Below are positions 328-63,599 of a DNA stretch of 64,000 bases, piece after piece. The translations under genes and the position numbers were made by a program. Within the stretch, counting starts at the first letter, position 1, and each line of letters opens with the position of its first letter. The notes below the pieces were generated by a model, which was not told the DNA's origin, searched no databases, and saw only the letters and a program-made list of their open reading frames with translations. The stretch is from Tolypothrix carrinoi HA7290-LM1 (GTDB lineage: Bacteria; Cyanobacteriota; Cyanobacteriia; Cyanobacteriales; Nostocaceae): the NCBI GenBank assembly GCA_019358935.1, contig JAHHIK010000029.1, positions 1 to 64,000 on the forward strand, given 5' to 3'.

Positions 328-840
328 AGTAGGAATAAGCAGTTGTATTAATTCGGTGTTTTCCAACACTGAAGCAGGTGTACCATTGAGACGGCGAAGC
401 TCTTGTTTAAACTCAGTTTCTGGTAGTGCGTGGATGGGTGGTTTTGGTGAGGAAATTTGAGGAGCGCGGCTAGCAGAAACAAATAGGTGAACTGGATTTT
501 TACCATGTTCTTTGCGAAGATTCTGAGCAAGTTAAAAACTGAGTAATCCACCCATACTATGACCGAAGAAAGCGAATGGTTTGTCTAAATATGGGAGGAG
601 GATGGGAGCGATCGCGGTAACTAGAGCTTCCATTCGTGTAAATGGAGGTGATTTCATCTGCGTTCCCCGTCCTGGAAGTTCTACAGGACAAATTTCAATA
701 TTTTTAGGTAAGCTCGAAGCCCATGTGCGAAAAGTTAAAGAGCTACCACCTGCATAGGGAAAGCAAAATAATCGCAAGTCAGCTTGAAGATTAGGTTTAG
801 GACAGGTAACGCAGGAGTTAAATTGGTGTGTAGTTTTCAT
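328..840 (-). pseudogene. Type II (editing) thioesterase pseudogene
   Basis: RLFCFPYAGG and GHSMG motifs. In-frame TAA at 532-534 where Glu is expected (SF*LAQNLRK). The same frame continues HLFVSASRAP...LRRLNGTP...LLIPT, then breaks at 327 before the expected LRAD motif. Confidence 0.85.
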
Positions 841-858
841 GATCTATCTTTTAAATTG

Positions 859-1002: not shown

Positions 1003-1887
1003 CTAACTGGCAACTTGGATTTTATCCGCTACAACCTCGTCAAATGCAATATTCATAGAGACTTCCTTCCAAGTATCCAATTCTCCTTTCATAACCTCCA
1101 GTGCATATTCAATTGTTTCAACTGCATCTACTCCTAAGGCTAATCTCTGTGGTGGGTTGTCACTATCAACCACTTGAATTATTGCTAAAGCGGCTTTTTT
1201 AGGATCGCCTAGTTGTGTGCCATGAGAATGCAACATCCCTAGACGATTGTTATCAACCAATTGTTTATAATCATCTATTTGACTATCATTGATAACAAAA
1301 GAACGTGTAACAAAATCTGTACGAAGTCCGCCCGGTTTAACTGCTGTGACTTTTATACCAAACGGTGCAACTTCGTTAGCTAATGAAGCGGAAATTCCTT
1401 CTAATGCCAGTTTGCTACTGCCGTAAAATCCACCAGATGGTTCTGCCATGAAGCTAGCCATTGATGAAATATTGAGGATATGTCCACTGCGTTGCTGTCG
1501 CATATAAGGTAGTACTGCTCGGAGCGTCTCTAAGACACCAAAAAAGTTTGTTTCAAATTGGTAGCGAACTGCTTCATCACTAACTTCTTCAATTACCCCT
1601 CCAATCTTACATCCGGCATTATTAACGAGTACATCAATACGCCCAAAGTTAGCGATCGCCTTTTTCACAGCTTCCCTTACCTCTTCAGGTTTCGTTACAT
1701 CAAGTTGTACTGCTAATGTGCGATCCGGAAAGCTTGCCGCTAAATCTTCTACGTGCTGTGGATTTCGTGCTGTTAGTACCACTGTCTCGCCTTGCTCAAG
1801 CACTGTTTCTGCTAATGCTCGACCAAAACCACTTGAGCAACCAGTGATAAACCATATCCGTGTCTTTTGAACTGAGGACGTTATCAT
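1003..1887 (-). CDS. Short-chain dehydrogenase/reductase (classical SDR)
   Basis: TGCSSGFG, NNAG, NISS and YGSSK motifs are intact. Confidence 0.9.
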   Translation of the reverse strand: MITSSVQKTRIWFITGCSSGFGRALAETVLEQGETVVLTARNPQHVEDLAASFPDRTLAVQLDVTKPEEVREAVKKAIANFGRIDVLVNNAGCKIGGVIEEVSDEAVRYQFETNFFGVLETLRAVLPYMRQQRSGHILNISSMASFMAEPSGGFYGSSKLALEGISASLANEVAPFGIKVTAVKPGGLRTDFVTRSFVINDSQIDDYKQLVDNNRLGMLHSHGTQLGDPKKAALAIIQVVDSDNPPQRLALGVDAVETIEYALEVMKGELDTWKEVSMNIAFDEVVADKIQVAS

Positions 1888-1918: not shown

Positions 1919-2143
<225 letters not shown>

Positions 2144-2362
2144 AATTGACCTCTTCATATTTATGAGTTATGCCTTGTTTTTGAATTATCCCATTACTGA
2201 AATTGATGTCATTTTTTACGTGAACATGCTTTCCTATTGTTGCCATATTGTAACTTTTTATAAAATATTTTCGCAATCTACTGGAATTTTTACATCATAA
2301 ATAGATGTTTGCTTATAACCAGAATAACATACATTGAAATAATAGCAACCTCTTATTCATAA

Positions 2363-3730
2363 TTAATTATTTTCATTAATCATTTTTAAATTAGTAAATT
2401 CTCTAAATGTTACAAAAAAAACTATTAACATAAATAAAAAATCTGCCAAAATTATTCCATAATATATACCTTTTAATCCAATCGTATTTGAAAATAATAG
2501 CATTATTGGCACATTCAAAACTATAGTTTTAAAAAAAAGTACTAATAATACAATTTTACCTTTGCCTATAGATAAAAAAAGAGTATTACTAAAGTTTGCT
2601 AAAGGCCATATCGGTATTAATATATTGAGAATTCTAAAATTTAGTGCATCATCTTCGGTAAAATTAGCGTTTGGCAGAATTAGATTCAAGAATATCCTTG
2701 GATCTAATTGTAAAGGCAACCAAATTAATATTAACAAAATAGTTCCAATGATTGCAAAAGTTAAGTATGCTTTTTTGACCCTATTATAATTTTTGGCTCC
2801 ATAATTCATACCAATGATAGGTTGTAAGGCGTTGGCGAAACCAATGATAGGAATAAATATCATTGAAGCCACTTTTAATGTTGCTCCATAGAAAGCAATA
2901 TCATTATTTGTTCCGTAATTAGAAATTAAATTAAAAATTACAAAATCTTGAATTAATACCACAACTGGATAAAATAGTGCTGATATTCCCACTGATAAGA
3001 TTGCAGGTAGTAAATCTATTGCGATCGCTAACTTTTTAGGATTAACTGGGATAGAACTTTTACCAGCAAGAAAATAGGCTAAATTAACAATGCTAAAAAC
3101 AACTATTGCCATAACTGTAGCGAGAGCAATACCTTGGGTTCCCCAATGAAATACACTAGTAAATATATAATTTAATAAAATATTAACAATAACAAAAATC
3201 AAGTAAAATATTGTGGTTAACCTAATTTGTCCTTCTGATTTTATGACCTCGATACAAGCTTCCGCTATTATCAAAAAAACTGAACCGAGGATATAAGTCT
3301 TAAAATATTTTGTGCCTTCGGAAGCAACTTCACCACTTCCTCCCATAAATACAATTAATTCTTCACCAAATTTGTAACCAATAATTGTAATAAACAAAGA
3401 GATTGCAACACTCATCACTGTGAGGTTGCCAAATACTTTAGACTGAGTTTTAATATCTCCCGAACCAATAGCTCGACTAAGAACAGAAGCGGAACCTACC
3501 CCAATTAAGAGACCAAATCCATTAACTATACTTATAAGTGGTAATGCAAGTGAGATACCAGCCAAAGCAGTTTCACCAATGAATCTTCCGGCAAATAAAG
3601 CATCAATAAAACCGTTTAAACTAAGCATCAGTATACCCAGAGTGCTGGGAATAGATAACTTGAACATCAGTTTGATCAGATTGCCTTGAAGGATTTCATT
3701 TGTGATTTCAGATTGTTTTTGTAAAGTCAT
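2363..3730 (-). CDS. MATE family efflux transporter
   Basis: 455-aa polytopic membrane protein with KLSIP..G, IDALFAGRFIG, G..GIALAT and IIGMNYGA MATE motifs. Confidence 0.9.
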   Translation of the reverse strand: MTLQKQSEITNEILQGNLIKLMFKLSIPSTLGILMLSLNGFIDALFAGRFIGETALAGISLALPLISIVNGFGLLIGVGSASVLSRAIGSGDIKTQSKVFGNLTVMSVAISLFITIIGYKFGEELIVFMGGSGEVASEGTKYFKTYILGSVFLIIAEACIEVIKSEGQIRLTTIFYLIFVIVNILLNYIFTSVFHWGTQGIALATVMAIVVFSIVNLAYFLAGKSSIPVNPKKLAIAIDLLPAILSVGISALFYPVVVLIQDFVIFNLISNYGTNNDIAFYGATLKVASMIFIPIIGFANALQPIIGMNYGAKNYNRVKKAYLTFAIIGTILLILIWLPLQLDPRIFLNLILPNANFTEDDALNFRILNILIPIWPLANFSNTLFLSIGKGKIVLLVLFFKTIVLNVPIMLLFSNTIGLKGIYYGIILADFLFMLIVFFVTFREFTNLKMINENN

Positions 3731-3755: not shown

Positions 3756-4772
3756 TTACTCAACCTTAACTAAACGGTTAATGCGATACTGCTTTACTGC
3801 TTCTAACTCCATCTGTTTTGCTGAGTTGAATGCACTCATAACCTCATTGCAGATTTCAATTCTGGCTTCATAAGCACCTGATACACTGCCATTTGGAGCT
3901 ACAAAATCAATACGGACTTCTGCCCAATCAGCATTCTGTTTTTCAGTAACTTCTTCCATAGCAAGGACTCTGCCAGCTTTCAAATAGTCAAGCCAAGCCC
4001 AGCCAAACTGCATCCAAATTTCGCGCTCGGCAAGTTGCTCAAATTTGCTTAAACCAGTCCATCCTCGGTAGTATTGACGCAAATCAGAGACTGAACCATT
4101 TCGGTTTACCAGTAAATCCAATACATCTAGTTCTAAATGTCCCCATAAGCATCCTTGGGGTAAATCAACTAAGGTAGGAGCAAACTGATGACCACCAAAA
4201 TGAGTTGTTTGCCATACTCTTAACTTTCCTTGGGAAGCAGGAGCATATTCTTTACGTAATTTTCGATATATGGGAGTCCCAAATCTGCCACAGGCAAGGT
4301 CTACTTGAGCATGGGTGCAAACCATGAGTTCGCGAATGTGACTCGTTTGTTGATGATATTGCTGAAATTGCAATAAATCGTTGGGTTGTTGCATTAACTG
4401 CTTGAATATTGCTGTTACCAAAGCAGCGACTTTGCTTTCTGGAACAATAAACTCCTGTTTCTCAAACTGAGAAAACAAATTTGCAGAGCGATAGTAGTAC
4501 AATACGCGGGTAAACCCAGGATGAGAGTACTCACGGTCAGGAGCAATTAACATCGGTTTCAACTTGACCCCATGCTTAAAAACTAACTCCTGGAATAAAC
4601 CCATCAATAACTTGGTAGTTGGATTTTCCTGAAAGATTTCTTGCGACCAAGGTTGGGGAATTTCCATAATCAGCCAATGGTCACAAGTACCTGCTGTACC
4701 AATTGGATCTTCTCCGTTAGCTTTAGAAACTAAAGAACAAAAACGACAATTTTTTGTGAGTAAATGTTCCAC
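3756..4772 (-). CDS. Sucrase/ferredoxin-like (2Fe-2S thioredoxin-fold) protein
   Basis: CS...GEDPIGTA, MVCTH...DLACGRFG and HFGGHQFAPT motifs. Confidence 0.85.
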   Translation of the reverse strand: MEHLLTKNCRFCSLVSKANGEDPIGTAGTCDHWLIMEIPQPWSQEIFQENPTTKLLMGLFQELVFKHGVKLKPMLIAPDREYSHPGFTRVLYYYRSANLFSQFEKQEFIVPESKVAALVTAIFKQLMQQPNDLLQFQQYHQQTSHIRELMVCTHAQVDLACGRFGTPIYRKLRKEYAPASQGKLRVWQTTHFGGHQFAPTLVDLPQGCLWGHLELDVLDLLVNRNGSVSDLRQYYRGWTGLSKFEQLAEREIWMQFGWAWLDYLKAGRVLAMEEVTEKQNADWAEVRIDFVAPNGSVSGAYEARIEICNEVMSAFNSAKQMELEAVKQYRINRLVKVE

Positions 4773-4822: not shown

Positions 4823-5713
4823 TTAATCCAATCCCATTCCTTTTCGTATTCCACCAAAATAAAAAGTGTCATGAAAATATTGATAAGGTACTAATCTTTT
4901 CAACAAAGCATATAACCGAAGTTCCCACGGTGATTGTGTGACAAAATATTGTCTTTTAGGTTTGGGAGCTTCTAAAGCCTCCAAAATTGCATCTGTTACT
5001 TTTTCAAGTGGTAAACCTGTCGTGCGATTGCCCTTAACAGCTGCTTGCATATATATTTTGTAGTTGTTACCATATATAGCTTTCGCTTCAGTTGACATAT
5101 TGGCTAATGTTTTTTGGTATCCTGTTTCTACTTTGTCAGCCTGTTCTGGGGTAACTATTCCTCCTGGTAAGATGGAAAGAACCTCAATTCCACTAGAACG
5201 TAATTCCATTCGCAAAGAATCTGTAATAGCTTCAAGCGCAAATTTTGAAGCAGATAAGAGTCCTCTATACGGTAGAGCTATTCTGCCGCAAATCGCACTG
5301 ATATTGATAATTCGACCTTTGGCTTTGCGGAGCATTGGTAAGAAAGCTTGGGTCACTGCAATTTGACCGACAACATTTACTTCAAAATTCCATCTGATGT
5401 CATCAATTGGTACACACTCCAGTGGTCCATCTACTGCTAAAACTGCATTATTAATTAATGCGAATAATCCTTCATTGCCGCTCGCTAGTGAGATAAATTC
5501 CGCAGCAGATTTAATTTGTTCTGCTTTTGTGATGTCTATGATAATAGGTGTTAAATCACCAGATGCAGCCTGCTTGAGCAACTCAGCATCTTTGTCTGTG
5601 CGGACTCCCGCAAAAACGCGATATTCTTCTTTGTCCAATAAAAGCGCGGTTGCTCTACCTAAACCTGTGGATGTTCCCGTAATGAATACATTACCTTTAT
5701 TACTCTTTGTCAT
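4823..5713 (-). CDS. SDR-family oxidoreductase with atypical catalytic residues
   Basis: TGTSTGLG Rossmann motif present. YxxxK reads LSASK (Tyr replaced by Leu). Likely start is MTKSNK at 5713; the ORF track extends to 5812. Confidence 0.85.
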   Translation of the reverse strand: MTKSNKGNVFITGTSTGLGRATALLLDKEEYRVFAGVRTDKDAELLKQAASGDLTPIIIDITKAEQIKSAAEFISLASGNEGLFALINNAVLAVDGPLECVPIDDIRWNFEVNVVGQIAVTQAFLPMLRKAKGRIINISAICGRIALPYRGLLSASKFALEAITDSLRMELRSSGIEVLSILPGGIVTPEQADKVETGYQKTLANMSTEAKAIYGNNYKIYMQAAVKGNRTTGLPLEKVTDAILEALEAPKPKRQYFVTQSPWELRLYALLKRLVPYQYFHDTFYFGGIRKGMGLD

Positions 5714-5798
5714 ATCTACTTCCTCTGTAATGAAAGATGTTTTTAAACCTAAAAAAGTAAATTCAGAAATTTGAGATATATCCGGAGCGGAACCAAGA

Positions 5799-7175
5799 CT
5801 AAACTGAACCAACAGCTAATGGCTGCAACTGTCCTTGATGCTGATGCCGACCACGCATGACCATCTTCACGCCGCTAGCTGGATAACAAATCAGACCTCC
5901 AAATTTGGGACGTTCTGGGCGCTGACTGACTAGCTCTAATTCATAACGTGAAAGAATGGTTGCTAATACAAGTTTCATTTCAAATAGAGCAAAAGTCCCG
6001 CCAATACACACACGAGAACCGCCACCAAATGGGAGAAATTCGTAGGGAGAAAATTGTTTTTCTGAAAAGCGCTCTGGCTGAAATTCTTTTGGCTTTGGGT
6101 ATAAATCTTCGCGCTGATGTGTGGAATAAATATTACCAATAAGTATTGTACCGGGATTCAACTCGTAGCCCATCACCTCAACGGTCGATTCTACCAATCT
6201 AGGAAATGCAAATAACTGAGTTGGGTAAATTCGCAAAGCTTCGTTACAAACAGCACTTAGGTAGGGAAGTGCGGCAATGTTCATGGGGTCTGGGTTTTCA
6301 CCCAGGCTGTCGAGTTCTTCCAGGAGGCGATCGCGAACATCTCTTATACAATGAATCCAGTACAGCGACCAACTAATGGCAGTTCCTGAAGCATCACTAG
6401 CTGCAAATATAGGCGATAATAACAGATCGCGCACCTCTTCATCGCTTAATGTTTCACCTGTTTCATCACAAGCAAATATCAGATCGGAAAGTATATCAGT
6501 GCGTGAAGAATCTGCTTGCTGGCGACGTTCTTCAACCTCAGCCGATAGCAATTGAAAAAGTTCTCGCCTCAGGTGAAGACGATATCCCTGTGGACTCCAT
6601 CGACCTAAATCCCGTTGTCCAAGAATATTCCCAAGAATCTTATCTATAAAAGATTGTCCTTCTCTAAGCGCAGACACAAATAAATGTTTGATTTTGTCAT
6701 AACGCTCTCCTTCACACAAACCCATGACAACTTCTATACCGACTCGCAAGGTAATATCTTCAATGGTCGGGTATGCAACGAAAGGCTTTCCAACCACCTG
6801 TTTACTCATAATCTTTTCTGTGAGTTCACAGATACGTCGTCCACAGGCTTGCATCCGCGCTCCGTGAAAAGATTGCATTAAGAGCTTACGCCGATTTTTA
6901 TGAATTAAACCATCAAGTTGAAGAACTCCTTGATTTCCTGTCATCAAGGCGAAACCTTGGTTTAACACACCTCTAGCTGCAATTTCCTTAGTATTTGTGA
7001 AAATCTCCTTTATTCCTAAGGAATTGCTGACATAAACTATTGGTGTAGAACCAGACATTAGAGTGACAATATCACCATAACGTTTGGAAATAGCATCCAT
7101 ATAGCCAAAGGGATCAGCCTCGAATTGCAGATTTAGTAGCCAGAAGGGTGTTCTCGGGCCTGGAGGTAGTTTCAT
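5799..7175 (-). CDS. Cytochrome P450 (CYP110-like)
   Basis: EALR (ExxR), PERF and FGGGSRVCIG heme-Cys motifs. Confidence 0.95.
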   Translation of the reverse strand: MKLPPGPRTPFWLLNLQFEADPFGYMDAISKRYGDIVTLMSGSTPIVYVSNSLGIKEIFTNTKEIAARGVLNQGFALMTGNQGVLQLDGLIHKNRRKLLMQSFHGARMQACGRRICELTEKIMSKQVVGKPFVAYPTIEDITLRVGIEVVMGLCEGERYDKIKHLFVSALREGQSFIDKILGNILGQRDLGRWSPQGYRLHLRRELFQLLSAEVEERRQQADSSRTDILSDLIFACDETGETLSDEEVRDLLLSPIFAASDASGTAISWSLYWIHCIRDVRDRLLEELDSLGENPDPMNIAALPYLSAVCNEALRIYPTQLFAFPRLVESTVEVMGYELNPGTILIGNIYSTHQREDLYPKPKEFQPERFSEKQFSPYEFLPFGGGSRVCIGGTFALFEMKLVLATILSRYELELVSQRPERPKFGGLICYPASGVKMVMRGRHQHQGQLQPLAVGSV

Positions 7176-7193: not shown

Positions 7194-10100
7194 TTATTTA
7201 TTTAGTTTGCACACAGCATTATCGATACAATTTCTCAGATGTTTAGCTAATTGTTGAATATGAGGTTCGACGAAAATCGAGAAATGATCCCCTGGAACAT
7301 CAATTACTTGAATAGGTTGACTATAATATTTACCCCAGCCTAGTAAGGGGTCATCAGTACTCCATTCTGGATTGTCAAAGTCATGAATAATCTCCTCCTT
7401 AGCTCGAAATAGAGTTATGGACTGAGGATAAACCAGGGGAACATAATCTCGCATGGCTTGGACATGTGCTCTGAAAAGTTTGTAATAATGGAGAAAATCT
7501 TCAACCTCTGTATCGCTAAAGATAAAGTTTGCTTTTTTATTTACTAAATGAAATTGCTCATTTAGTGGTAAAACTCGAAGTTCCTCAAAAGGAATTGAAA
7601 AATCTATATTATTGTTGGTTTTTATCGATTCTGCCATGCGGAGTAAGAATTTTGCATCGTCATCTTTTGTAGATTCAATACGTGTTTCTGATAGTATGGT
7701 ATCGATAACAACTAACAAACCTACTGTTTGACTTTGCCTTTGCAATTGCTGCGCCATTTCAAAAGCAAGTACACCGCCGTAACAATGACCGCCTAAAAGA
7801 TAAGGACCATTTGGTTGTACTTGACGAATTTCTTTGAGGTAGCGAGTTGCCGTCTCCTCGACTGAAATAATTTCAGGTAAGTCTTGCTCTAGGGTATGTT
7901 CCAAGGCATAAAATGGATAGTCTTCCCCAAGTCTTCTGGACAATTTAAAGTAGTTATTAATACCTCCACCAGCGCCATGCATACAGAAAAAAGGTATCTT
8001 GGAACCAGAAGAGTTAATTGCTACCAGAGGAGAATTAGAACTCTCACGGGATGGCTGACTGACGATAGTTGCTAATTTTTCAATTGTTGGGTTTTCAAAA
8101 AGAGTAGACAGGGTAAGATTATGCTCAAATTTGTCCTCAATTTGAGCCATTAAGCGTACAGCTAAAAACGAGTGACCACCCAAGTCAAAGAAGTTATCTG
8201 TTACCCCAATAGGGTTAGTATTTAGGAGATTTTCCCAAAGTTTTACTAATGATAATTCTGTAAAATTACGAGGAGCGACGAAGGATTGGGTAGTATTTGG
8301 TCGAAGAACTTCATCAGTTATCAGAGAACGCTTGTCTACTTTGCCATTAGGTGTAAGTGGGAGCGCATCCAGTACAACGAAAGCAGATGGTAGCATGTAA
8401 TTAGGTAATTTCTGTTGCAAATCTGGCAACAGTTGTACAGCTATATCCTGTTTATCTGTGACGACATAGGCAATCAAACGCTGATTTTCTTGAGCATCAT
8501 CGCTAGCAATTACAACAGATTCTTGCACATCTGGATGTTGTGCGATCGCAGTTGCAATTTCACCCAATTCTACTCGAAAACCTCTAATTTTTACTTGTTC
8601 ATCATGGCGTCCAAAATATTCCAGATTACCATCTTTGAGATATCGTACTAAATCGCCTGTTTTGTAAAGTTTATTTCCGGGAATAAAGGGGTTATCAATA
8701 AACCGTTCCTGAGTTAATTCAGGACGATGCAAATATCCTCTTGCCAATCCATCACCACCAATATAAAGTTCACTGACAACTCCTACAGGTGTTGGTTGTA
8801 AATTGCGATTCAAAACATAAATCTGAGTATTATCGATAGGACGACCGATGGGGATACTGCTTGCTTGCTCTGGCAATAAACTCGTGTCGTAGTAAGTGGC
8901 GTTGGCGGAAACTTCCGATGAGCCGTAAAGGTTGATTAGTTTTGCAAATGGTATCAATTCTCGGAAAGTTTGAACTAACTTAACAGAAAGTGCTTCTCCG
9001 CTAGTTATCCAGAGTTTTAGCTGTGATAATTTCTTGGTCAGATGACTGTAATTATCAAGAAGTAAGCGCAGTAATGAGGGTACAAGTATGATACGAGTAA
9101 CTTTGTGATGCGCTAGAGTTTCTATAAATAATTGCGGGTCTAGTATAGTTGCATTGCTGATAATTACTGTAGGAATTCCTTGAAGTAAAGGAGCAAAAAT
9201 TTCCCAGACAGAATCTACAAAGCTAATAGCTGTTTTCTGACAACAAACTTCTCCTTGGGTAAAAGGATAGGTTTTCCATAACCAGTGTAAGCCGTTGACT
9301 GTACCGCGATGAGTGCCAAGAACACCTTTAGGAGTTCCGGTTGAGCCAGAAGTGTAGATAATATAGGCGAGATTATCAGATGAAGAGGTGCTAATGGGGT
9401 TTTCTGGACTTTCTTGAGCGATTTCGTCTTTGTGGATATCCAAGCAAACAGTTTTAGCAGAGGATAATGACAGTTTTTCTAATATCTCTTGTTGGGTAAT
9501 TAACACTGATGCTTGGGAATCAGAGAGCATAAAATTCAGACGCTCCACTGGATAACTTGGGTCAAGGGGAATGTAGGCTCCGCCAGCTTTGAGGACACCT
9601 AAAATTCCCACCACCATATCTATGGAGCGTTCCAAACATATAGCAACCAGGGTTTCTTTTGTTATACCCTGTTTTTGTAAATAATGTGCAAGCTGATTAA
9701 CTCTATGGTTAAGTTGACGATAAGTCAGTTCCTCAGACTGGCTAATTAATGCTAAAGAGTCAGGGGTTCGCTCGACTTGCTGCTCAAATAATTGATGCAG
9801 AGATACATCTTGAGGATAATCTGCACGAGTTTGATTAAACTTAAATAATAGTTGCTCTCGCTCAGAAGTAGTTAGTAACGACAACTCACTAAGGCGCTGC
9901 TCTGGATTAGTAACGATATTTTCCAACAAAGTCTGGAAATTGTTTATAAATTGGGTAATCGTTGTTGAATCAAAAATATCCGTGTTGTACTCCAAATATC
10001 CTGTTAATCCCTCTTGAGATTCAGACATTGATAGGAAAATATCTAGTTGAGCGGTACCGCTATCAAATTCCAAAGTACGCAAAGTTAATCCAGACACTTC

Positions 10101-11291: not shown

Positions 11292-11447
11292 TGCTGATAA
11301 ATTTAATTTACAAGCCAAATCATCAAATGAAATCGATTTTATTCAATCTAAGACAGATTGAAAGTTTATTTCTGGAAAAGGGTTCTGTGAATCCATCTGT
11401 TGCATTTATTTTTCACATGGTATAACTCTGCAATTATATTAATTATA

Positions 11448-47640: not shown

Positions 47641-47677
47641 AATACCATTTATGCCACGTAAAATGGCAATTTATATT

Positions 47678-47929: not shown

Positions 47930-47944
47930 TAGTCTTGATTATTC

Positions 47945-55732: not shown

Positions 55733-57082
55733 TCACGACTGCGAACGCTTAACTTGGGATAAATGCGGGATAAACTCCATATTAAATTCAGGTAATAAGT
55801 TAGATGGCAGATGTTTATGAAAAGCTTCAATTGCTCGTTGCACACCATCTTCTACTTGAATTTTCTTGCTAATTTCAACTACGCGAGCCTGCATCGCCTT
55901 ATCATTGATAGCAGTTTTAATTGCTGCTGCTAACTTTTGAGCAGACAATTGTTCTTTTTGCGGTACTGTAAAATTAATACCTAAACCAGACTGTTCTAAA
56001 TGGGCTGCCCAAAACTCATGATCATTCAAAAAAATATTACCGTCATCTACAATAACAATCATACGAACACCAACTCGTAGAGAAGTCATAATTGTTCCCA
56101 AGCCAGCTTGGTGTACAACTACGGACATTTTTGGGAATAACCAGTTATGATATACCGACCCTTTTATAGATAGTATTTTATCTGTAAATTCAGTATCGTC
56201 TAGGTCGTCGTTATTGGAACTCTGCACAATTATTCTTTGTCCAGTTAGTGCTGAAAGTTCTAGTAGAACTTCTTTTGTAAAATGCTCAGGATGCCAAAGT
56301 CTACTAATATAGATCGGCGGAGATCCTTCAGATAAAAAATTTATTAGGTTTGTTGGTGGTTGCCAATTATCTGGATTATCTAGGAAGCAATAACCAGTTA
56401 CATGCACATGTTCTTGCCATTCAGATGGTTTAGGCAGAAAAGAAGGACTATAACCATATAGTGCTGGGATTTTTCGCTGCTGTATATAGCGCAATACACT
56501 CACAAAAAAAAGAAGAGGAGGCAAATTCAAGATTTCCTGTCGCCACTGATTAATTGTTGGTCGAATGTATAACCAAAGAATTTGGTCAAAAAGCGGATAA
56601 CTAAACCAATTGTAAATACTTCCTAAATGTTTGAAATAAGGCATATGTGAGTAATAAAAAGCTCTCGTTTGGTGGTGGGGTTGTACAGGAACTAAATAGC
56701 AAGGTATACCTAGTTTCTCTGCAATATAAATACATGGGAACACAGTTGTGTTAAACATTATGGCATCTGTTCCTTGGCATACTTGCCATAACTGAGTTAG
56801 CATCCCATTTTTATTTTTTAGTTCTTCAGAAATCCAAGCTATTTCATTTAGAGTACGGATGTTAAAAATTCTTTTTTTTAAGAAATACTCTCCAATATCT
56901 ACAAGTTCCCAATCCATAGGAACAAATTCAATACCAAAACTTCTAACGAATTCTTCTGCCGCATCGTCATATGCGAATGCAGCAATCCGCACTTTATGCC
57001 CAAATTTTTCTAATCCCAGTGCTAAGGGCACATAAGGTCTAATGTCACCAGCAGTTCCTAATGTAGCAATTGTTATGTGCAT
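55733..57082 (-). CDS. GT1-family (sterol-glucosyltransferase-like) glycosyltransferase
   Basis: N-terminal IATLGTAGDIRPY, plus PKPSEW..HVHVTGY and WLFPKMSVVVHQAGLGT. Confidence 0.85.
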   Translation of the reverse strand: MHITIATLGTAGDIRPYVPLALGLEKFGHKVRIAAFAYDDAAEEFVRSFGIEFVPMDWELVDIGEYFLKKRIFNIRTLNEIAWISEELKNKNGMLTQLWQVCQGTDAIMFNTTVFPCIYIAEKLGIPCYLVPVQPHHQTRAFYYSHMPYFKHLGSIYNWFSYPLFDQILWLYIRPTINQWRQEILNLPPLLFFVSVLRYIQQRKIPALYGYSPSFLPKPSEWQEHVHVTGYCFLDNPDNWQPPTNLINFLSEGSPPIYISRLWHPEHFTKEVLLELSALTGQRIIVQSSNNDDLDDTEFTDKILSIKGSVYHNWLFPKMSVVVHQAGLGTIMTSLRVGVRMIVIVDDGNIFLNDHEFWAAHLEQSGLGINFTVPQKEQLSAQKLAAAIKTAINDKAMQARVVEISKKIQVEDGVQRAIEAFHKHLPSNLLPEFNMEFIPHLSQVKRSQS

Positions 57083-57095: not shown

Positions 57096-60000
57096 TTACG
57101 AAGTACGAAGCCGCTTTTTTCTGTTAACAGCTGCTTTTTGTTTTTCTGCTCTACCACGAATTTCTTTAAAAGAATCTTTTTGGCTTTGATCCTGAATTAA
57201 ATAGTTAGCTAAAGAACTGATATTTGGGTATTTGAACAAATCAGTAATTAATACATTTTTAGGAAACAGTTGTTGCAGTTTGCTTTGAACTTGAAGCGCA
57301 AGTAGTGAATGACCACCTAAATCAAAGAAATTGTCATTTATTCCTACTGTTTCTAGATGAAGAACTTCCTGCCAAATCGTTGCAATTGTTTTCTCAACCT
57401 CATTGCAAGGTGCAACATGAGCAAAGGCTAAATTTGAACTTAAATCCTTGGGTGTTGGCAAAGCCCGACGGTCTAATTTACCATTTGGACTTAACGGTAA
57501 AGCGTTAAGCATTATGAAGCTAGAAGGAACCATATATTCGGGTAAGTGTTCCTTTAAATAGTCTCTTAGGCGTTGGGCTAAGTTTCCTGGGTTAATACGT
57601 TTATTGCTCCCAAACTGAGAAAAAAGTCGCTCATAAAAAGGTGTTTGCTTGAATACTCTTTGATGGTGATAAGATTTGTATTCAAATTCAATTTTTTCTC
57701 CATTTATCTTAATTAAGCGTCCTTTAATCTCGTAGTCAGGGTTTAGATTGTTATCAGACAGTGTTCCTTTACAAAAAGCTTGAATTGTATCTCCTACGGA
57801 TACTTGAATACCAGGATAAAATACCGGAAAGTAAACTGGTAACCAACTATATTCATGATCGAGGATATCTATTACTTCTCCTGGAACAGTCTCCAAACTT
57901 AACCATAGTAAAAAACCATCTAATCTGGAATCTTTATTAATAGTGAAACTTACTTCATGACAGTATTCTGGTGCAACAAATCTTGTAAAATCTAAATTTT
58001 CAAAATTTTCCACATTGGATATGATATTTGATTTAGGAAATTTATTAATACATAATCTCAAATCAAATGGATACCCAACTTCTTCAAAAACTTGCTCAGT
58101 ATAGTATGCTGTTAGCTCAGTAAACCTTGGATTATCTAATAATTCATCAGGAAGACAAGCAGGAGCAATTTTAGTTATAGCTTTAAAGGGTATCATGACA
58201 CCATCTTGTTTTAAAAATCTTCTAGCGTCATTAAGAATTACTGTCACACCTTCAGAACCAGCTATTGTCCCCATTATTTCTGAGACACATATATCAGCGA
58301 GTTCTGGTAAATTCACTTGGGTTGCATCCCCATGAATTAAAGTTATTTTGTCTGACAAGCCTAAGTTATTGATATTAGCTTCTGCTTGACGATACGCTTC
58401 CTCGCCAATCTCAATTGCATAGACTTTCTTTGCACCTGCTTCTACACAAAATCTCGACAATATCGCATCTTTACCTGTACCAATTTCAACAACTACTTTA
58501 TCTTTTACTAGCTGATTTATAGCAACTTTATAGCTATGATTCCTCAAATAATCATTGGTCATAGCGTAGTATAAGAATTCGTCGTAGACTGGGTATTCTC
58601 CTACAGATGGCCATAGTTCGATTTGGTCTTTTTGTTGGTTGTCCTGTTCACTTAATAAGTTGCCCTGTCTCTTTTCAGGAACAATATAAGCTACTAAGCG
58701 CTTATTTCCAGACACATCTTCCCTGTCCATAACCACACTCTCTTGAACATCTGAGTGTTGATTCAACAATGCCTCAATTTCCCCTAGTTCGATGCGGAAG
58801 CCACGAATTTTTACTTGATAGTCAATACGCCCTAAAAACTCAATGTTTCCATCTAATCGGTAGCGAACTAAGTCGCCTGTCTGATAAAGACGCGCTCCTG
58901 CTTCTGTAGTATAGGGATTGGGTATAAACTTTTCTGCTGTTAATTCCGGTCGGTTGCGGTAGCCTCTTGCTACACCCATACCTCCAATATAAAGTTCTCC
59001 TGGAACACCTATCGGAACCAATTCCAGAGATGAATCTAGTATATAGGTCTGAATGTTATTAATTGGTTTTCCAATTGGCAACTCACATCCCACAGTTTTA
59101 AGAGATGTTACTGTTGATAAATCGCACATTGTTGCAGAAATTGTCGTTTCTGTAGGGCCGTAGCAATTAACGAGTCGTACTTGTTCCCCTACCTGCTGCT
59201 GCCATATTTTTAAACGCGAAGGATCAGCTTTTTCGCCACCAATGAGAACTAATCGCACTGTTACAGGTAGTACTAAATTTCCCGTAGACAATTCATCTGT
59301 TAGCTGATGCCAAAAGCTAGTAGGTAAGTCAAGTATTGTAAGTTCCAAATTATTACACTGATACAGGAACTCCGATATGGAACTCAACATTTGATCAGTT
59401 CGTAGTATTAAGGTTGCACCTTGCAATAAACACGAAAATATTTCTTCGGCAGCTACATCAAAACTAATTGAAGTAAATTGTAGAATGCGATCGCTCGACT
59501 TCAGCGCAAACTCTATACATGTAGTATTAATATAAGTACTCAAGGAGCGATGCTGAATCATTACCCCTTTGGGTGTTCCCGTTGAACCAGATGTATAAAT
59601 TAGATAGGCTAGGTTTTCAGGTTGTGTCTGATTAATCGGATTGTCCTGGCTGTTCTCAGCAATGGTCTGCCAGTCTGTATCTAAGCAAATGACTTGAGAT
59701 TGATGTTCGGGGAGTGCATCGCATTGTACTGACGTAGTTAGTAAAACTGACACTTGGGCATCCTTTAACATCAAAGCCAGACGTTCTTTTGGGTAAGCAG
59801 TATCTAAAGGTAGATATGCACCTCCGGCTTTGAGGATTGCCAGCAGTCCAACCACCATCTCTAAAGAGCGCTGTATGCAGATTCCCACTAAAACTTCTGG
59901 TCTAACTCCCAAAGTTTTGAGATAGTGCGCTAGTTGATTCGCTCGCTGATTTAATTCTTTATAAGTTAAATGTTGGTTGTCAAAAACCACCGCAACTGCA

Positions 60001-63000
60001 TTTGGTGTTCGTTCTACCTGTACTTCAAACAGTTGATGAATGCATTGTTCAATCTTAGATTGAAAATTTGGTATTTGGAATTTATTTGTACTAAATTCTA
60101 GTAACTCTTTACAATCTGCCTCGCTCAAAAGTGGTAAATTGGATAGCCGAGCTTGAGGATTAGTAGCAATACCTGAGAGCAAATTCTGAAAGTGTCTCAG
60201 CATTTTAGCGATGGTGGCAGCATCAAACAAGTCAGTATTGTATTCAAATGAAGCCATCACAGCTTTCTGTGTAATGTTAATAGAGACACTCAAATCAAAC
60301 TGCGCTGTTTCGGTTTCTATTTTTACCGAACTCAACGTCAGACTAGGTATCTCTGGTAACTGTGAGTAATCCTGGATACTGAACATAACTTGAAACAGCG
60401 GTGTGCGACTTGTGTCCCGTTCTGGTTGCACTGCTTCTACCAGTTGGTCAAACGGCAAATCCTGGTGTGTATAGGCTCCTAAAGCCACCTTTCTTACCCG
60501 CGTCAGCAACTCATCAAAAGTCGGGTTGCCGCTCATATCTGTACGTAGTACCAAGGTATTGACAAAAAAGCCAATTAATCCTTTTACTTCATCACGATTG
60601 CGATTAGCGACAGGTGTTCCTACAGCAATATCATCTTGTCCTGTGTAACGGTAGAGAAAAGTCCCAAATGCTGCCAATAGCAACATAAATAAAGTTACAC
60701 CTTCTTGACGAGCGATCGCCTTCAATTGCTTAATTACTACTTCAGACAACTCAATAGATTGTTGAGCACCGTGTGAGGTTTGTACCGCAGGTCGTGGTCG
60801 GTCAGTGGGTAGTTGTAATGCTGCTGGTATACCCTCAAGTTGTTGCTTCCAGTAAGAGAGTTGAGTTTGCAAAATTTCTCCTTGCAACCATTGTCTCTGC
60901 CAGTGTGCAAAGTCTTTGTACTGGATAGAGATTTTTGGTAGAGGTGAAGAAGTTCCGGCTAAGAATGCTTTGTACAGTGATGCCATCTCCTGTAAAAATA
61001 CCTCAGTAGACCAGCCATCAGAGATTATGTGGTGCATCTCCAGTAAAAGAATATGCTCTTGCGGTGCTAAACGCAAAAGTTTAGCACGTAACAACAGTCC
61101 CTGAGTAAGGTCGAAAGGTTGTTGACTTTGTTCAGTCAAGAATTGCTCGACTGCGGCATCTCCCTGTGATTCTATACTTTTTTGATAATCTATTACTGAT
61201 AAAGATAATTTTAGGGAAGCAGCAATAATTTGCATCGGCTGCCCGTTGACTGTAGTAAAAGTGGTTCTGAGAGTTTCATGTCGCCGGATAATTTCATTAA
61301 GACTTTGTTCTAGTAAAGTAACCTCAAGCTCACCTTTGAGATTAACAGCTAAGGAAATGTTGTAAGCTGGGTTACCTGGTTCCAAACGGTCGAGGAACCA
61401 TAGTCGTTGCTGGGCAAAAGACAAAGGATAAACTTCGGCTTTCTGGACTTGGCTAAGAGATTCTCTTGGTATGAAAGCCTCTGCTGTTATTTGAGCGAGT
61501 ATCTTAGTGACGAGCGATCGCGTACTCATCCCTTCAAAGAAGTCTGCTACAGATACTTCTACTTCTAAATCAACCTCAATCCGGTTTTTCAACTCAAATA
61601 CTTTTAAAGAATCAAGTCCCAGAGTGCTTAATGGTTCTTCAGGACTGATATCATCTGGTGCGATCGCCAAAACTCTCGCTTCCTGTTCCATCAGATATGA
61701 TTCTAAAAGTGCTTGACATTCCCTTGGGGAGAGTGCCAAAAGTTGAGAACGCTGTAATCGAGTTTCCTCTCTGACAATATTGCTACTTTTCAGAATATTG
61801 CTGACAACTACATTCAGTTCGCCATTCTGATATTGAGCGTGAGTTGCACGTCGTTGAATCTTACCACTGGAAGTTTTGGGGATACTACCTGGTTTAATTA
61901 AAACAACTGCATAAACTTGTACCTCATGCTCTTCAGTAACCGCTTGGCGAATTGCACTTGCTACTTTTTCTAAATTAGGTTTAGCGCGAAACTCCAATTC
62001 TTGTACAACTACGAGCTTTTCTTCATTGCTAACTTCAACTGTAAATGCTGCATTAGCACCGGGACGCAAGGATGGATGGCTGCTTTCTGCGGTTAATTCT
62101 ATATCCTGCGGGTAAAGATTGCGACCTCGAATAATAATTAAATCTTTGGCTCTACCTGTGATGAAAAGCTCCCCATTCTGCAAAAAACCTAAATCCCCCG
62201 TCCGCAGAAATGGTCCTTCTCCTGTATCTGATAGATAAGCGTGGAATGTCTCCTCTGTCTCCTCTTCACGATTCCAATAACCTTGACCAACACTCAATCC
62301 AGATACCCAGATTTCCCCGATTTCACCTGGTTGACAACTCTTGAGTGTTTCCGGATTGGCAATTACTACCTTCTGTTCTGGTATGACTCGACCGCAGCTG
62401 ACAAAATGGTAAACGTTATCATCTTCAACAGATGATTCAACAACTCGATTCGATTCTAATGCAGATTTCTGGATTGCTTTAACAATCGGTGATGTAGCCT
62501 TTTGCACACCGGAAACCATCAGAGTTGTTTCAGCCATTCCGTAACAGGGGTAGAATGCCTCTTTACGGAAGCCACACTCTGCAAAAGCCACTGCAAACCG
62601 CTCTAAAGTATCGTGGCGAATCGGTTCAGCTCCATTAAATGCTACACTCCAACTACTCAAGTCAAGAGTTGCTTTTTGTTCCGGAGTAATTTTTTGCACA
62701 CATAGATCGTAGGCAAAATTCGGACCTCCGCTTGTTGTCCCTTGATACTTGGAGATAGCCTGCAACCAACGATAAGGACGTTGGAGAAAGGAAGCTGGAG
62801 GCATGATAATGCAAGGAAAACCTCCATACAAAGGTTGCAATATGCCACCAATCAGACCCATATCATGGTACATCGGCAGCCACGTCACGAACTTACTTTC
62901 TGCTGAATGCTCCATGAATTGGTAAGTGGTGTCAGCATTGTGCAATAGGTTCCCATGACTAATCATTACACCCTTGGGTGTCCCCGTAGAACCAGAGGTA

Positions 63001-63599
63001 TATTGCAGAAAAGCTAAAGTATCTTTATTAATAGAGGGTTCTTGCCAACTATCTTCTATTCCCTGTGCAAGATTGTCGGTAGTTAGCCATTGTAACGATC
63101 CTAGGTCAGTCTTTTCTGTCATTAAAGACTCTACTGTAGGCAATATTTCCGTTGTCGTCAGAGCGATCGCTGCTTGTGCCGAAGTAGAAATCGCCTTTAT
63201 TCTCGGTGTATTGCGCTGATTTCTGGGAGGATATGCAGTTACAGCCACAACTCCCGCATATAAGCAACCGAAAAAAGCAACTAAAAAATCTAGTCCTGCT
63301 GGATAAAGCAGTAAAGCGCGTTCCCCAGTCAAACCCAATGCTTGTAATTGAGCAGCTACTCTGCGCGATCGCCTGTCTAATTCCTGATAGGTTAGCGTTA
63401 CTTCTTCTGTTTCCCCATCTAACAAGAAGATAAAAGCATCTCGATTCGGCTGGGTAGAGCTTGCTTTACGCAAGAGTTCAACAACTGTAGAACAGTTGCG
63501 TAAAGCAAGCGCGTCGTTGGCGTAGCCTCTCGTAGAGAAGACATCGCTTTCTTGAAAGCTATGAGAATATTGATTCATTTTTTCGACAGCTAGATGCAC
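57096..63599 (-). CDS. Starter NRPS FAAL-ACP-C-A(interrupted by a methyltransferase)-PCP
   Basis: FAAL motifs LQYTSGSTG.PKG, WLPMYHDMGLIG and IPKTSSGKIQR; ACP GLDSL; HHIISDG. Code is about DVEDLGCISK. A ~350-aa MT lies between A8 and A9. PCP GGHSL. The start may be ATG at 63578. Confidence 0.95.
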   Translation of the reverse strand: MHLAVEKMNQYSHSFQESDVFSTRGYANDALALRNCSTVVELLRKASSTQPNRDAFIFLLDGETEEVTLTYQELDRRSRRVAAQLQALGLTGERALLLYPAGLDFLVAFFGCLYAGVVAVTAYPPRNQRNTPRIKAISTSAQAAIALTTTEILPTVESLMTEKTDLGSLQWLTTDNLAQGIEDSWQEPSINKDTLAFLQYTSGSTGTPKGVMISHGNLLHNADTTYQFMEHSAESKFVTWLPMYHDMGLIGGILQPLYGGFPCIIMPPASFLQRPYRWLQAISKYQGTTSGGPNFAYDLCVQKITPEQKATLDLSSWSVAFNGAEPIRHDTLERFAVAFAECGFRKEAFYPCYGMAETTLMVSGVQKATSPIVKAIQKSALESNRVVESSVEDDNVYHFVSCGRVIPEQKVVIANPETLKSCQPGEIGEIWVSGLSVGQGYWNREEETEETFHAYLSDTGEGPFLRTGDLGFLQNGELFITGRAKDLIIIRGRNLYPQDIELTAESSHPSLRPGANAAFTVEVSNEEKLVVVQELEFRAKPNLEKVASAIRQAVTEEHEVQVYAVVLIKPGSIPKTSSGKIQRRATHAQYQNGELNVVVSNILKSSNIVREETRLQRSQLLALSPRECQALLESYLMEQEARVLAIAPDDISPEEPLSTLGLDSLKVFELKNRIEVDLEVEVSVADFFEGMSTRSLVTKILAQITAEAFIPRESLSQVQKAEVYPLSFAQQRLWFLDRLEPGNPAYNISLAVNLKGELEVTLLEQSLNEIIRRHETLRTTFTTVNGQPMQIIAASLKLSLSVIDYQKSIESQGDAAVEQFLTEQSQQPFDLTQGLLLRAKLLRLAPQEHILLLEMHHIISDGWSTEVFLQEMASLYKAFLAGTSSPLPKISIQYKDFAHWQRQWLQGEILQTQLSYWKQQLEGIPAALQLPTDRPRPAVQTSHGAQQSIELSEVVIKQLKAIARQEGVTLFMLLLAAFGTFLYRYTGQDDIAVGTPVANRNRDEVKGLIGFFVNTLVLRTDMSGNPTFDELLTRVRKVALGAYTHQDLPFDQLVEAVQPERDTSRTPLFQVMFSIQDYSQLPEIPSLTLSSVKIETETAQFDLSVSINITQKAVMASFEYNTDLFDAATIAKMLRHFQNLLSGIATNPQARLSNLPLLSEADCKELLEFSTNKFQIPNFQSKIEQCIHQLFEVQVERTPNAVAVVFDNQHLTYKELNQRANQLAHYLKTLGVRPEVLVGICIQRSLEMVVGLLAILKAGGAYLPLDTAYPKERLALMLKDAQVSVLLTTSVQCDALPEHQSQVICLDTDWQTIAENSQDNPINQTQPENLAYLIYTSGSTGTPKGVMIQHRSLSTYINTTCIEFALKSSDRILQFTSISFDVAAEEIFSCLLQGATLILRTDQMLSSISEFLYQCNNLELTILDLPTSFWHQLTDELSTGNLVLPVTVRLVLIGGEKADPSRLKIWQQQVGEQVRLVNCYGPTETTISATMCDLSTVTSLKTVGCELPIGKPINNIQTYILDSSLELVPIGVPGELYIGGMGVARGYRNRPELTAEKFIPNPYTTEAGARLYQTGDLVRYRLDGNIEFLGRIDYQVKIRGFRIELGEIEALLNQHSDVQESVVMDREDVSGNKRLVAYIVPEKRQGNLLSEQDNQQKDQIELWPSVGEYPVYDEFLYYAMTNDYLRNHSYKVAINQLVKDKVVVEIGTGKDAILSRFCVEAGAKKVYAIEIGEEAYRQAEANINNLGLSDKITLIHGDATQVNLPELADICVSEIMGTIAGSEGVTVILNDARRFLKQDGVMIPFKAITKIAPACLPDELLDNPRFTELTAYYTEQVFEEVGYPFDLRLCINKFPKSNIISNVENFENLDFTRFVAPEYCHEVSFTINKDSRLDGFLLWLSLETVPGEVIDILDHEYSWLPVYFPVFYPGIQVSVGDTIQAFCKGTLSDNNLNPDYEIKGRLIKINGEKIEFEYKSYHHQRVFKQTPFYERLFSQFGSNKRINPGNLAQRLRDYLKEHLPEYMVPSSFIMLNALPLSPNGKLDRRALPTPKDLSSNLAFAHVAPCNEVEKTIATIWQEVLHLETVGINDNFFDLGGHSLLALQVQSKLQQLFPKNVLITDLFKYPNISSLANYLIQDQSQKDSFKEIRGRAEKQKAAVNRKKRLRTS
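63498..63548. repeat. Nostoc-type small dispersed repeat(s), in frame in the FAAL N-terminus
   Basis: Minus strand AGCGATGTCTTCTCTACGAGAGGCTACGCCAACGACGCGCTTGCTTTACGC encodes SDVFSTRGYANDALALR. Confidence 0.6.

Follow-up and report, generated by a model that had tools for sequence, protein, structure and literature searches.

Closest Described Systems

Nitrogen-fixing cyanobacteria have a high iron demand. The structures of 24 cyanobacterial siderophores are known, and many NRPS–PKS clusters with uptake genes are still without a product. The locus described here, a hybrid NRPS–PKS line of Tolypothrix carrinoi HA7290-LM1, lies in a window (the whole stretch of DNA analysed) of 64,000 nucleotides on contig JAHHIK010000029.1, and its end recalls kirromycin biosynthesis. 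According to the available portions of the source papers, the kirromycin route involves an N-beta-ketoacyl-beta-alanyl thioester and the Asp decarboxylase KirD, release by a Cys-Asp-His Dieckmann cyclase, and formation of the C5–C6 double bond by the P450 KirOI (PMC4979870, PMC5818483, PMC10956176). An Asp decarboxylase, a terminal beta-Ala module that receives a keto-bearing chain, a Cys nucleophile, P450 tailoring and an optional methyltransferase are common to the present locus and to kirromycin, aurodox and factumycin, as far as the accessible text goes (PMC4979870, PMC5818483, PMC9361827). In contrast, the kirromycin type uses a free-standing cyclase of the TrdC/KirHI family and no thioesterase (TE), whereas the Cys lies here on a fused type I TE; the decarboxylase PanP is PLP-dependent, unlike that of the kirromycin-type pathway; and the kirromycin-type products are antibiotics with long polyketide chains, whereas a lipopeptide chelator is predicted here. 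By analogy, this TE would work like the TrdC/KirHI/NcmC family without being a member of it, its Dieckmann activity being predicted. Fungal N-hydroxy-2-pyridones chelate Fe(III), and the tenellin type likewise has a 3-acyl-4-hydroxy-pyridone head, P450 N-hydroxylation and Fe(III) chelation, here only predicted; it differs, in the accessible part of the source, in its fungal iterative PKS–NRPS and in a ring made via tetramate expansion, not from beta-Ala (PMC8669486).

Among cyanobacterial products, cyanochelins A–C have in common with this family FAAL priming, a TonB receptor and an Ntn acylase, and cyanochelin C has a beta-Ala module, as here. Their ligands are beta-OH-Asp, whereas the window contains neither an Asp module nor TauD, and an end made of a KR-less PKS, beta-Ala and a Cys-TE was not found for them in the available text (10.64898/2026.07.24.740629, PMC12628792). 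Anachelin, the leptochelins and the lusichelins are also hybrid NRPS–PKS metallophores with uptake genes (PMC4247773, PMC11240249, PMC12210259, as available), and their kind of salicylate starter occurs in some relatives of the cluster; their ends, however, are either a quinolinium catechol or a thiazoline acid, not the pyridone predicted here. Neither “pyridone” nor “pyrid” appears in the papers on leptochelins and lusichelins (PMC11240249, PMC12210259), no paper linking a cyanobacterial metallophore cluster with a pyridone was found by literature search, and a pyridone head is unreported among known cyanobacterial siderophores.

For the front half, zwittermicin A provides a GYS-type AT with a hydroxymalonyl cassette, the second AT motif being HAFH here and GAAH in ZmaA-AT (PMC4207774, available part). 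Myxoglucamide has, as here, a PKS-fused E domain followed by a D-donor C domain, as well as alpha-oxidation by an FMN monooxygenase in a glycolipopeptide line; its MxgC is a published precedent for the PKS-fused E domain, which the initial annotation had considered rare (PMC13638107, available part). Zwittermicin A and myxoglucamide have other backbones and ends. As identities for the product, cyanochelins, anachelin, leptochelins, lusichelins and myxoglucamides were rejected on module content, as far as their sources describe it. Puwainaphycin, hassallidin, anabaenolysin, desmamides, zwittermicin and paenilamicin were rejected by comparing module content with their known structures.

Organization of the Locus

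The cluster is intact and 63 kb long; its biosynthetic genes are all encoded on the minus strand, between 63599 and about 330. The colinear FAAL-to-TE order proposed initially is borne out, each of the ten modules (six NRPS and four PKS) lying in an unbroken ORF, and so is the backbone read from module order and A codes; the motif-derived codes are, in order, DVEDLGCISK, Thr, Gly, Thr, Gly and VDWIISLANK. Module 1 is a FAAL-ACP-C-A-T protein of 2167 aa (57096..63599) with a Lys/Arg/Orn-type code and a PRMT-fold methyltransferase insert (57645-58637). It is followed by a glycosyltransferase (55733..57082), whose nearest solved structure is a sterol 3-beta-glucosyltransferase, by a dioxygenase of the Asp/Asn beta-hydroxylase family (54793..55641; weak OlsC-like match, optional in the family) and by PKS1 (KS-AT(GYSIG)-cMT-KR-ACP, 48870..54728), with an AT of the ACP-bound-extender type and a methyltransferase nearest to the CurJ C-methyltransferase. 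The hydroxymalonyl-ACP cassette (45382..48799) comprises a 3-hydroxyacyl-CoA dehydrogenase (47945-48799), an ACP (47678-47929), an acyl-CoA dehydrogenase (46456-47640) and FkbH (45382-46452). Next come the NRPSs C-A(Thr)-T-E (40591..45381) and C-A(Gly)-T-C-A(Thr)-T (34119..40589), the latter opening with a D-donor-type C domain; PKS2 (KS-AT(GYSIG)-KR-ACP-E, 27919..33999), whose KR has altered motifs and uncertain activity; and a C-A(Gly)-T module (23450..27901) with a D-donor-type HHxxxEG C domain and a luciferase-like monooxygenase (LLM) insert (24770-25792).

The remaining part begins with the aspartate 1-decarboxylase PanP (21662..23404), a conserved core gene for beta-alanine supply, and PKS3 (KS-AT(malonyl)-KR-ACP with a canonical KR, 16938..21617). 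The conserved core also includes PKS4 (KS-AT(malonyl)-KR-ACP, 12264..16892), whose KR has a degenerate NADPH motif, the terminal C-A-T-TE protein (7194..11318), with a beta-Ala-type A domain and a GHCYG TE predicted to be a Dieckmann cyclase, and a cytochrome P450 lacking the conserved I-helix Thr (5799..7175), a predicted ring desaturase or N-hydroxylase. An optional stand-alone class I methyltransferase (11448..12218) precedes the terminal module. A short-chain dehydrogenase (SDR, 4823..5812) and a sucrase/ferredoxin-like protein (3756..4772), both common yet optional, a MATE exporter (2363..3730), an MbtH-like protein (1919..2158) and an optional second SDR (1003..1887) complete the set. 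The last gene, a type II thioesterase (330..840), is a pseudogene with an in-frame stop at 532-534, cut at about 330 by a multicopy repeat (1-330); an assembly error was rejected as the origin of the stop, which is also present in a possible source sequencing run. The initial annotation had missed this pseudogene, the iron-uptake neighbours and the AT types of PKS1 to PKS4, as well as the likely pyridone meaning of the end formed by a dead KR, beta-Ala, Cys-TE and P450.

The Conserved Terminal Cassette

Comparison with 23 related clusters, hand-picked for long contigs and kin to one another, so that their counts are not independent, revealed a variable front half and a fixed end. This end consists of a PKS without a working ketoreductase, beta-Ala, Cys-TE and the Thr-less P450, mostly with PanP. 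Its four parts match those building the 3-acyl-4-hydroxy-2-pyridone of kirromycin, hence the reading of a pyridone-type head.

PanP, present in 20 of the 23 relatives, scores 623.8 against a TIGR03799 cut-off of 606.1, in keeping with the beta-Ala/PanP link made initially. In all 21 genome clusters read, the last PKS either lacks a KR (7) or has one with a changed NADPH motif (14), and PKS4 is predicted from its motifs to hand the last module a chain that still bears its beta-keto group. The code VDW(I/V)ISLANK, which we take to be a beta-Ala code, is found in 110 of 120 homologues of the terminal module; this meaning and the PanP linkage support the predicted beta-Ala assignment. No beta-Ala-specific structure was found in the PDB for the last A domain, and the available part of the aurodox paper quotes another motif for its beta-Ala module.

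The Cys nucleophile noted initially is confirmed by the GHCYG motif: the triad is Cys1179-Asp1206-His1345 (codons 7782-7784, 7701-7703 and 7284-7286), invariant in 137/137 aligned rows from two overlapping sets. By sequence this is an ordinary type I TE, with AB3403 as best PDB match, Asp1206 at the EntF/AB3403-type position and no NcmC-type cyclase among the listed PDB matches down to E=1. A search of the ESM Atlas returned generic thioesterase clusters only, and the structure predicted from a 5-sequence alignment has a mean pLDDT of 48. In another cluster of the same genome, on contig C63, a Cys-TE follows Gly and there is no keto donor, and the Cys-TE of ObiF1 forms the beta-lactone of obafluorin, according to the available text; the Cys alone is thus not diagnostic. 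The cassette P450 occurs in 22 of the 23 relatives. Its I-helix Thr is absent from all cassette P450s parsed (32 of 35 parsed), and it has no PDB match at E<=1e-40.

The Variable Front Half

The A domains nearest to that of module 1 carry Lys/Arg-type codes, and DVEDLGCISK is presumably a basic-residue code. The PRMT-like insert had been regarded as a rare, Arg-related feature. It recurs, however, in N-methyl modules of cyanopeptolin-type lines (identified as such, by assumption, from module order) in 40 of 389 family genomes, where copies 56–69% identical are inserted in A domains of Phe/Tyr/Val/Leu type, which occupy the N-methyl aromatic position. Arg-specific chemistry as a rare feature was therefore rejected, and N-alpha methylation appears more likely than methylation of the Arg side chain. 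When the final 3 kb of the first gene were compared with the DNA of 41 genomes, only matches of 64–72% were found outside genome G000.

The GYS motif marks ATs that take ACP-bound extenders (PMC4207774, available part). The ATs of PKS1 and PKS2 are of the hydroxymalonyl type and those of PKS3 and PKS4 of the malonyl type, and the hydroxymalonyl-ACP system is complete in the window, with FkbH, ACP, two dehydrogenases and GYS-type AT. The GYS-type AT and the FkbH cassette are both present in 15 of 24 clusters and both absent in 8, the single discordant case lying at a contig end. The two Thr modules share a stretch of 1541 bp at 98.5% identity in their A domains. The two C domains downstream of E domains show 52% mutual identity, against about 29% with other C domains, which fits the D-donor C domains expected after E. 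The LLM embedded in A(Gly) passes the TIGR04020 cut-off; it is optional in the family, most relatives having a plain module at this place. With the LLM, the dioxygenase and the glycosyltransferase are strain-level decorations of the line: the “glyco” label of the initial annotation stands insofar as the glycosyltransferase gene is present, but this gene is strain-specific, occurring in only 1 of 24 clusters.

A Common Family of Gene Clusters

The combination of features had been held to be unique. In fact, the terminal module, with beta-Ala and Cys-TE, has a homologue at E<=1e-75 in 125 of 389 genomes of the family, as well as in 4 genomes of 3 other families (401 genomes sampled across the phylum). 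The cluster is thus one member of a very common orphan family of gene clusters, present in about one-third of related cyanobacterial genomes, including Scytonema hofmannii PCC 7110, Calothrix sp. PCC 7716, Desmonostoc muscorum LEGE 12446 and Fischerella sp. PCC 9605. In line with the initial annotation, no characterised product was found in searches of the open-access literature. Galica 2021 reportedly listed 31 cyanochelin-like clusters, which may include members of this family.

The terminal-module homologue of Allocoleopsis franciscana, taken to be the current name of PCC 7113, a member of the orphan family CF-26, is 79% identical. The present family is probably CF-26 of Calteau 2014, for which the available text gives six hybrid clusters of product “Unknown”, 3/6 flagged as siderophore and 3/6 not (PMC4247773). 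The shared legend of its Fig. S5 names a PLP Asp decarboxylase, FkbH, acyl-CoA DH, hydroxyacyl-CoA DH, MatE, P450 and SDR, together with a benzoate-CoA ligase and a chorismate-binding protein (PMC4247773). The window matches this content in a hybrid cluster (PLD, FkbH, cDH, hbDH, MatE, cyp, SDR), the legend spanning four panels and its terms being tied to panel B (CF-26) by inference. Membership of CF-26 was defined by >62% identity with synteny, and the sequence support here is one homologue of one protein. The six genomes of 2014 compare with at least 125 now, and the available part of PMC4247773 proposes no product, mechanism or pyridone for CF-26.

Iron-Uptake Context

Two uptake genes lie just beyond the window end (contig 64649-68424), one for a TonB-dependent siderophore receptor and the other for a FecB-type binding protein. 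The receptor, which scores 423.6 against the TIGR01783 cut-off of 223.5, starts at contig 64649 and shares with the line a divergent intergenic region of 1.05 kb, the window part being 63600..64000. Of the 23 relatives, 21 have a TonB receptor in the sequence analysed around the cluster (at most 80 kb), and in several genomes it lies inside the cluster, versus 0/5 control NRPS loci taken from five of these genomes, a set of 5 loci only, and 0/5 other NRPS contigs of the present genome. The two exceptions are G568 and contig C5 of G027, the latter being the only whole relative without an extra ligand module.

No genes for recognised chelating groups (catechol, hydroxamate, beta-OH-Asp, salicylate-azoline) were found in the window, which has no Asp code and no TauD, and IucA/IucC has no match in this genome. 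Some relatives carry Asp modules with TauD, or salicylate synthase starters, in their variable part. Ntn acylases mark siderophore clusters, according to the available text of 10.64898/2026.07.24.740629; they are found in some relatives, as are AraC and neighbouring IsiA-like or flavodoxin genes. Contig C155 of this genome holds an acylase-TEII-ExbBD-TonB-like locus. A Fur-box scan gave 13/19 matches, a level reached by 14/16 upstream regions versus 45/150 background regions. A de novo promoter motif scored 13.2 versus 11.2–12.0 for shuffles with fewer seeds, which is not clearly above them.

Proposed Pathway and Alternatives

Gene order, domains, motifs, conservation and uptake-gene linkage are observed, and the chemical steps are deduced from them. 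It is somewhat probable that the FAAL-primed line makes an amphiphilic siderophore, released by Dieckmann cyclization, with a metal-binding head of the 3-acyl-4-hydroxy-2-pyridone type. A fatty acid would be coupled to an N-alpha-methylated basic residue. PKS1 and PKS2 would load hydroxymalonyl-ACP to give two alpha-hydroxy-amide units, the first probably C-methylated and the second epimerised, with D-Thr-Gly-Thr between them, and these could serve as two bidentate Fe ligands. Downstream of Gly, the chain would gain a beta-hydroxy ketide from PKS3 and then a beta-keto ketide from PKS4, and the last module would acylate the beta-Ala provided by PanP. Attack of the acidic alpha-carbon on the thioester of the Cys-TE would then yield a six-membered 3-acyl-piperidine-2,4-dione, which the Thr-less P450 may desaturate to a pyridone (KirOI-like) or N-hydroxylate (TenB-like), creating the third ligand. 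Export by MATE and re-import of the iron complex via the adjacent TonB receptor and FecB-type protein would close the cycle.

The product might instead be a siderophore without any ring, the Cys-TE hydrolysing or macrocyclising a chain whose beta-keto-amide is left open or reduced in trans by an SDR. The normal type I fold of the TE by sequence, the Cys-TE without keto donor in C63, the SDRs of most clusters and the beta-Ala module of cyanochelin C are compatible with this outcome, which is nevertheless unlikely: it leaves unexplained the keto group kept in 21/21 clusters, the invariant Cys and the Thr-less P450 that follows, and 6/23 relatives have no SDR match. Formation by the Cys-TE of a strained beta-Ala ring, either an N-acyl beta-lactam or an oxazinone, by analogy with the GXCXG motif that supports beta-lactone closure in ObiF1, seems extremely improbable, since an unactivated amide would be needed as nucleophile, the conserved beta-keto group would be superfluous, and the ObiF1 TE scores only E=0.52, with an Asp placed elsewhere than Asp1206.

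In this strain the chain could be split by the in-line LLM: A-embedded monooxygenases follow a terminal-amide logic in myxothiazol, and hydroxylation of Gly would here yield two products, a lipopeptide with an amide terminus and a small pyridone. The Gly-type code with the LLM inside the A domain and the same LLM module in G202 and G280 (about 90% identity) fit such a split, which is quite unlikely given that the plain module of most relatives indicates that head and tail are normally joined. The FMN monooxygenase MxgE of a hybrid line can moreover alpha-oxidise a ketide without cutting (PMC13638107, available part); a 68% identical LLM sits mid-line in contig C55 of this genome, a recurrence that does not reveal the outcome. 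It is very unlikely that the product is a glyco-lipopeptide for defence or signalling, or that it chelates a metal other than iron, the uptake genes being mere neighbours. Nostocales are indeed rich in TonB receptors (22 in PCC 7120), the Fur-box signal is weak, and the end cassette of G027 C5 adjoins a halogenase-family gene and no uptake genes. Against this stand the receptor linkage (21/23 versus 0/5 in controls), the receptors within the cluster in several genomes, the known iron ligands in the variable part of relatives, and the low number of receptor-like ORFs in this genome, about six in 7.96 Mb.

Significance

The window holds one decorated member, and the value lies in the family. If the siderophore reading with a pyridone-type head is true, a common chelating group escapes genome-mining rules, and the family would contain a type I TE that forms a pyridone, for which no published example was found; as a fused enzyme, it would be a useful engineering part. 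The family also gives a sharp prediction: iron-starved cells should make a 3-acyl-pyridone or dione derived from beta-Ala. It may be, tentatively and somewhat short of probable, that a siderophore class so far unrecognised is encoded in about one-third of Nostocaceae genomes, a class in which a fixed hydroxypyridone-head cassette is combined with interchangeable alpha-hydroxy-amide, beta-OH-Asp or salicylate front ends. If true, no other siderophore type would be as common among heterocyst-forming cyanobacteria.

The Cluster and Its Family

The window covers the first 64 kb of a 72.7 kb contig, and its 21 open reading frames of at least 150 aa follow one another from 63599 to 1003, every one on the minus strand. 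Pfam and NCBIfam profiles bear out each domain named in the initial annotation for the FAAL-to-TE line of six NRPS and four PKS modules, and the cluster is real and intact. The six A-domain codes, read from motifs, we take to specify a basic residue, Thr, Gly, Thr, Gly and a beta-Ala-type pocket. Over 1541 bp, the A domains for Thr (34475-36015 and 42279-43819) are 98.5% identical, which from sequence would fit either recent duplication or gene conversion. The two C domains following E domains form a class apart (52% identity within the pair, about 29% with other C domains). Only the type II TE gene is broken: its stop is also found in a possible source sequencing run, and a multicopy repeat (1-330; covered by reads at about 7-18 times the single-copy depth) truncates its end. 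A locus on contig C155 (6003-12132) holds an intact paralogue, grouped with an acylase, 78% identical to a penicillin-amidase-family gene of the G150 relative, and ExbB/ExbD/TonB-like genes, possibly a satellite locus for deacylation and uptake.

Rather than standing alone, the cluster is a family member. TE-region homologues at E<=1e-75 and at least 53% identity occur in 125 of 389 Nostocaceae genomes (host included), most of them in ORFs close to 1370 aa long, and in 171 at E<=1e-50. A database search returned 851 matches, the 120 listed having 76-100% identity and coming from Nostoc, Scytonema, Calothrix, Fischerella and others; in a phylum sample, 10/401 genomes match, four of them from three other families. 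The 23 relatives mapped here (21 genome clusters picked for long contigs and two annotated plasmid copies) have highly diverse front ends and a constant end; being kin and hand-picked, they give counts that overstate independence. A fragmented Scytonema MAG orthologue, with a first gene 87% identical, was excluded from these counts.

The Fixed End and Its Predicted Ring

The PKS preceding the last module lacks a KR (7) or has an altered NADPH-binding motif (14) in all 21 genome clusters. PanP scores above its NCBIfam cut-off in the window and is present in 20/23 relatives. The announced Cys-TE has the motif GHCYG, and its Cys1179, Asp1206 and His1345 are invariant in 137/137 aligned rows; the control lines, five other NRPS loci from five of the relatives' genomes, terminate in Ser-TEs. 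The predicted TE substrate is therefore an N-(beta-ketoacyl)-beta-alanyl thioester. In the available text on kirromycin, such a thioester is the substrate of a Cys-dependent Dieckmann cyclase, the beta-Ala comes from KirD, and the C5-C6 double bond is introduced by the P450 KirOI (PMC4979870, PMC5818483). A related P450 accompanies 22/23 relatives; the I-helix Thr is absent from all 32 P450s parsed out of 35, and two unrelated P450s in the vicinity of the G022 cluster retain it.

Unlike the kirromycin enzyme, that of the window is a fused type I TE and no homologue of TrdC/KirHI. Tetramates offer a precedent for fused TEs that act as Dieckmann cyclases, there described with Ser (PMC10956176, in part). 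Cys alone is no proof of Dieckmann closure, because the TE Cys of ObiF1 serves beta-lactone formation and a second host line (C63:9082-19512) ends in another Cys-TE, GWCMG, after Gly. Release by Dieckmann ring closure is nevertheless the probable function of the fixed end. In one relative (G027:C5:47869-77009, stretches L170-L171), a short FAAL-Leu-PKS-PKS line has the same Cys-TE end with a variant A code; halogenase-family, acylase and Rieske oxygenase genes are present, PanP and receptor absent, and the ring-forming cassette has possibly been put to non-siderophore use.

Iron Context

Directly beyond the window lies the gene of a TonB-dependent receptor that passes the TonB-siderophore model, together with genes for a FecB-type protein, DUF1636, an ABC exporter and a Fur-family protein. 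The latter gene (contig 71474-72013; L077:11474-12013) overlaps a 200-bp element with dozens of genome copies, which may have replaced its C-terminus. A TonB receptor occurs within the fetched stretch of 21/23 relatives, inside the cluster in several; in G202, G280 and G281 its gene is flanked on both sides by assembly-line genes of equal orientation. None was found at the five control loci or on the five other NRPS contigs of the host. The two relatives without a nearby receptor are G568 and G027 C5, the latter also without any extra ligand module. Relatives' clusters include Asp modules with TauD, salicylate starters, acylases and AraC genes. IucA/IucC had no match in the host genome, and the Fur-box scan gave a weak signal. 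A metallophore is very likely the product; a metallophore that also carries the Dieckmann ring on an intact chain is favoured only slightly.

The window's ligands likely derive from hydroxymalonyl units. The ATs of PKS1 and PKS2 carry GYSIG, a GYS-type motif marking ATs for ACP-bound extenders (PMC4207774, in part), and GYS-type AT and FkbH cassette agree in 23/24 clusters, a contig end cutting the one exception. Together with the ring, two alpha-hydroxy amides would provide six donor atoms; fungal N-hydroxy-pyridones do bind Fe(III) (PMC8669486, in part). The PKS1 MT is nearest to the CurJ C-methyltransferase and, acting on a hydroxymalonyl unit, would yield a tertiary alcohol. The PKS2 KR shows altered motifs, and G304 and G314 lack it, so the PKS2 unit may keep its ketone. 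G130 has no FkbH cassette and two free LLM genes behind its PKS genes, which suggests an alternative route to the alpha-hydroxy group. In G006 (L086:7076-12613), a hydroxymalonyl-type PKS module has an FkbM-family methyltransferase at an unusual position behind the ACP (Pfam-checked in G006 only); G150 and G022 have a module of equal length and layout.

The Chemistries Thought Rare

The insert of the first A domain has the announced PRMT fold and resembles CARM1, but is not rare, with homologues in 40/389 genomes. These are located in Phe/Tyr/Val/Leu-type modules, including the N-methyl aromatic position of lines that we take, from module order, to be of the cyanopeptolin type; backbone N-methylation is thus the simpler reading. 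The E domain fused to PKS2 is present as claimed, but its rarity does not hold, an E domain fused to a PKS and followed by a D-donor C domain being described for myxoglucamide (PMC13638107, in part). The C domain after GYS-type PKS-E carries HHxxxEG in 9/9 cases, including the window's (23450-27901), and HHxxxDG in the single malonyl-type case; HHxxxEG perhaps marks, as far as motifs tell, a subclass for alpha-hydroxy donors.

The predicted LLM is a TIGR04020 monooxygenase within the fifth A domain; 2/21 genome relatives (G202, G280) also have an A-embedded one, which may serve Gly hydroxylation, upstream-unit oxidation or chain cutting. At another host locus (C55:13135-23985), an LLM sharing 68% identity with that of the window is embedded in a Gly-type A domain in mid-line. 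The glycosyltransferase gene (sterol glucosyltransferase-like) is present in 1/24 clusters and the Asp/Asn hydroxylase-family gene in 3/24.

Relation to Known Families

The assembly line was considered uncharacterised and unmatched. Neither a characterised product nor a pyridone proposal for the family was found in the literature (MIBiG and subscription journals being outside its scope), but the cluster probably belongs to an orphan already catalogued. Calteau et al. (2014) list the hybrid family CF-26 in six genomes, product unknown and three flagged siderophore, and the accessory genes in their Fig. S5 legend include those of the window (PMC4247773, available parts). The available parts of a 2026 preprint and a 2025 paper sort 24 cyanobacterial siderophore structures into six groups, and the KR-less PKS/beta-Ala/Cys-TE end was not found among these. 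The cluster is predicted to make an NRPS-PKS siderophore whose putative head group would have no counterpart among those known from cyanobacteria, and its importance rests on the breadth of the family, not on strain-specific decorations.
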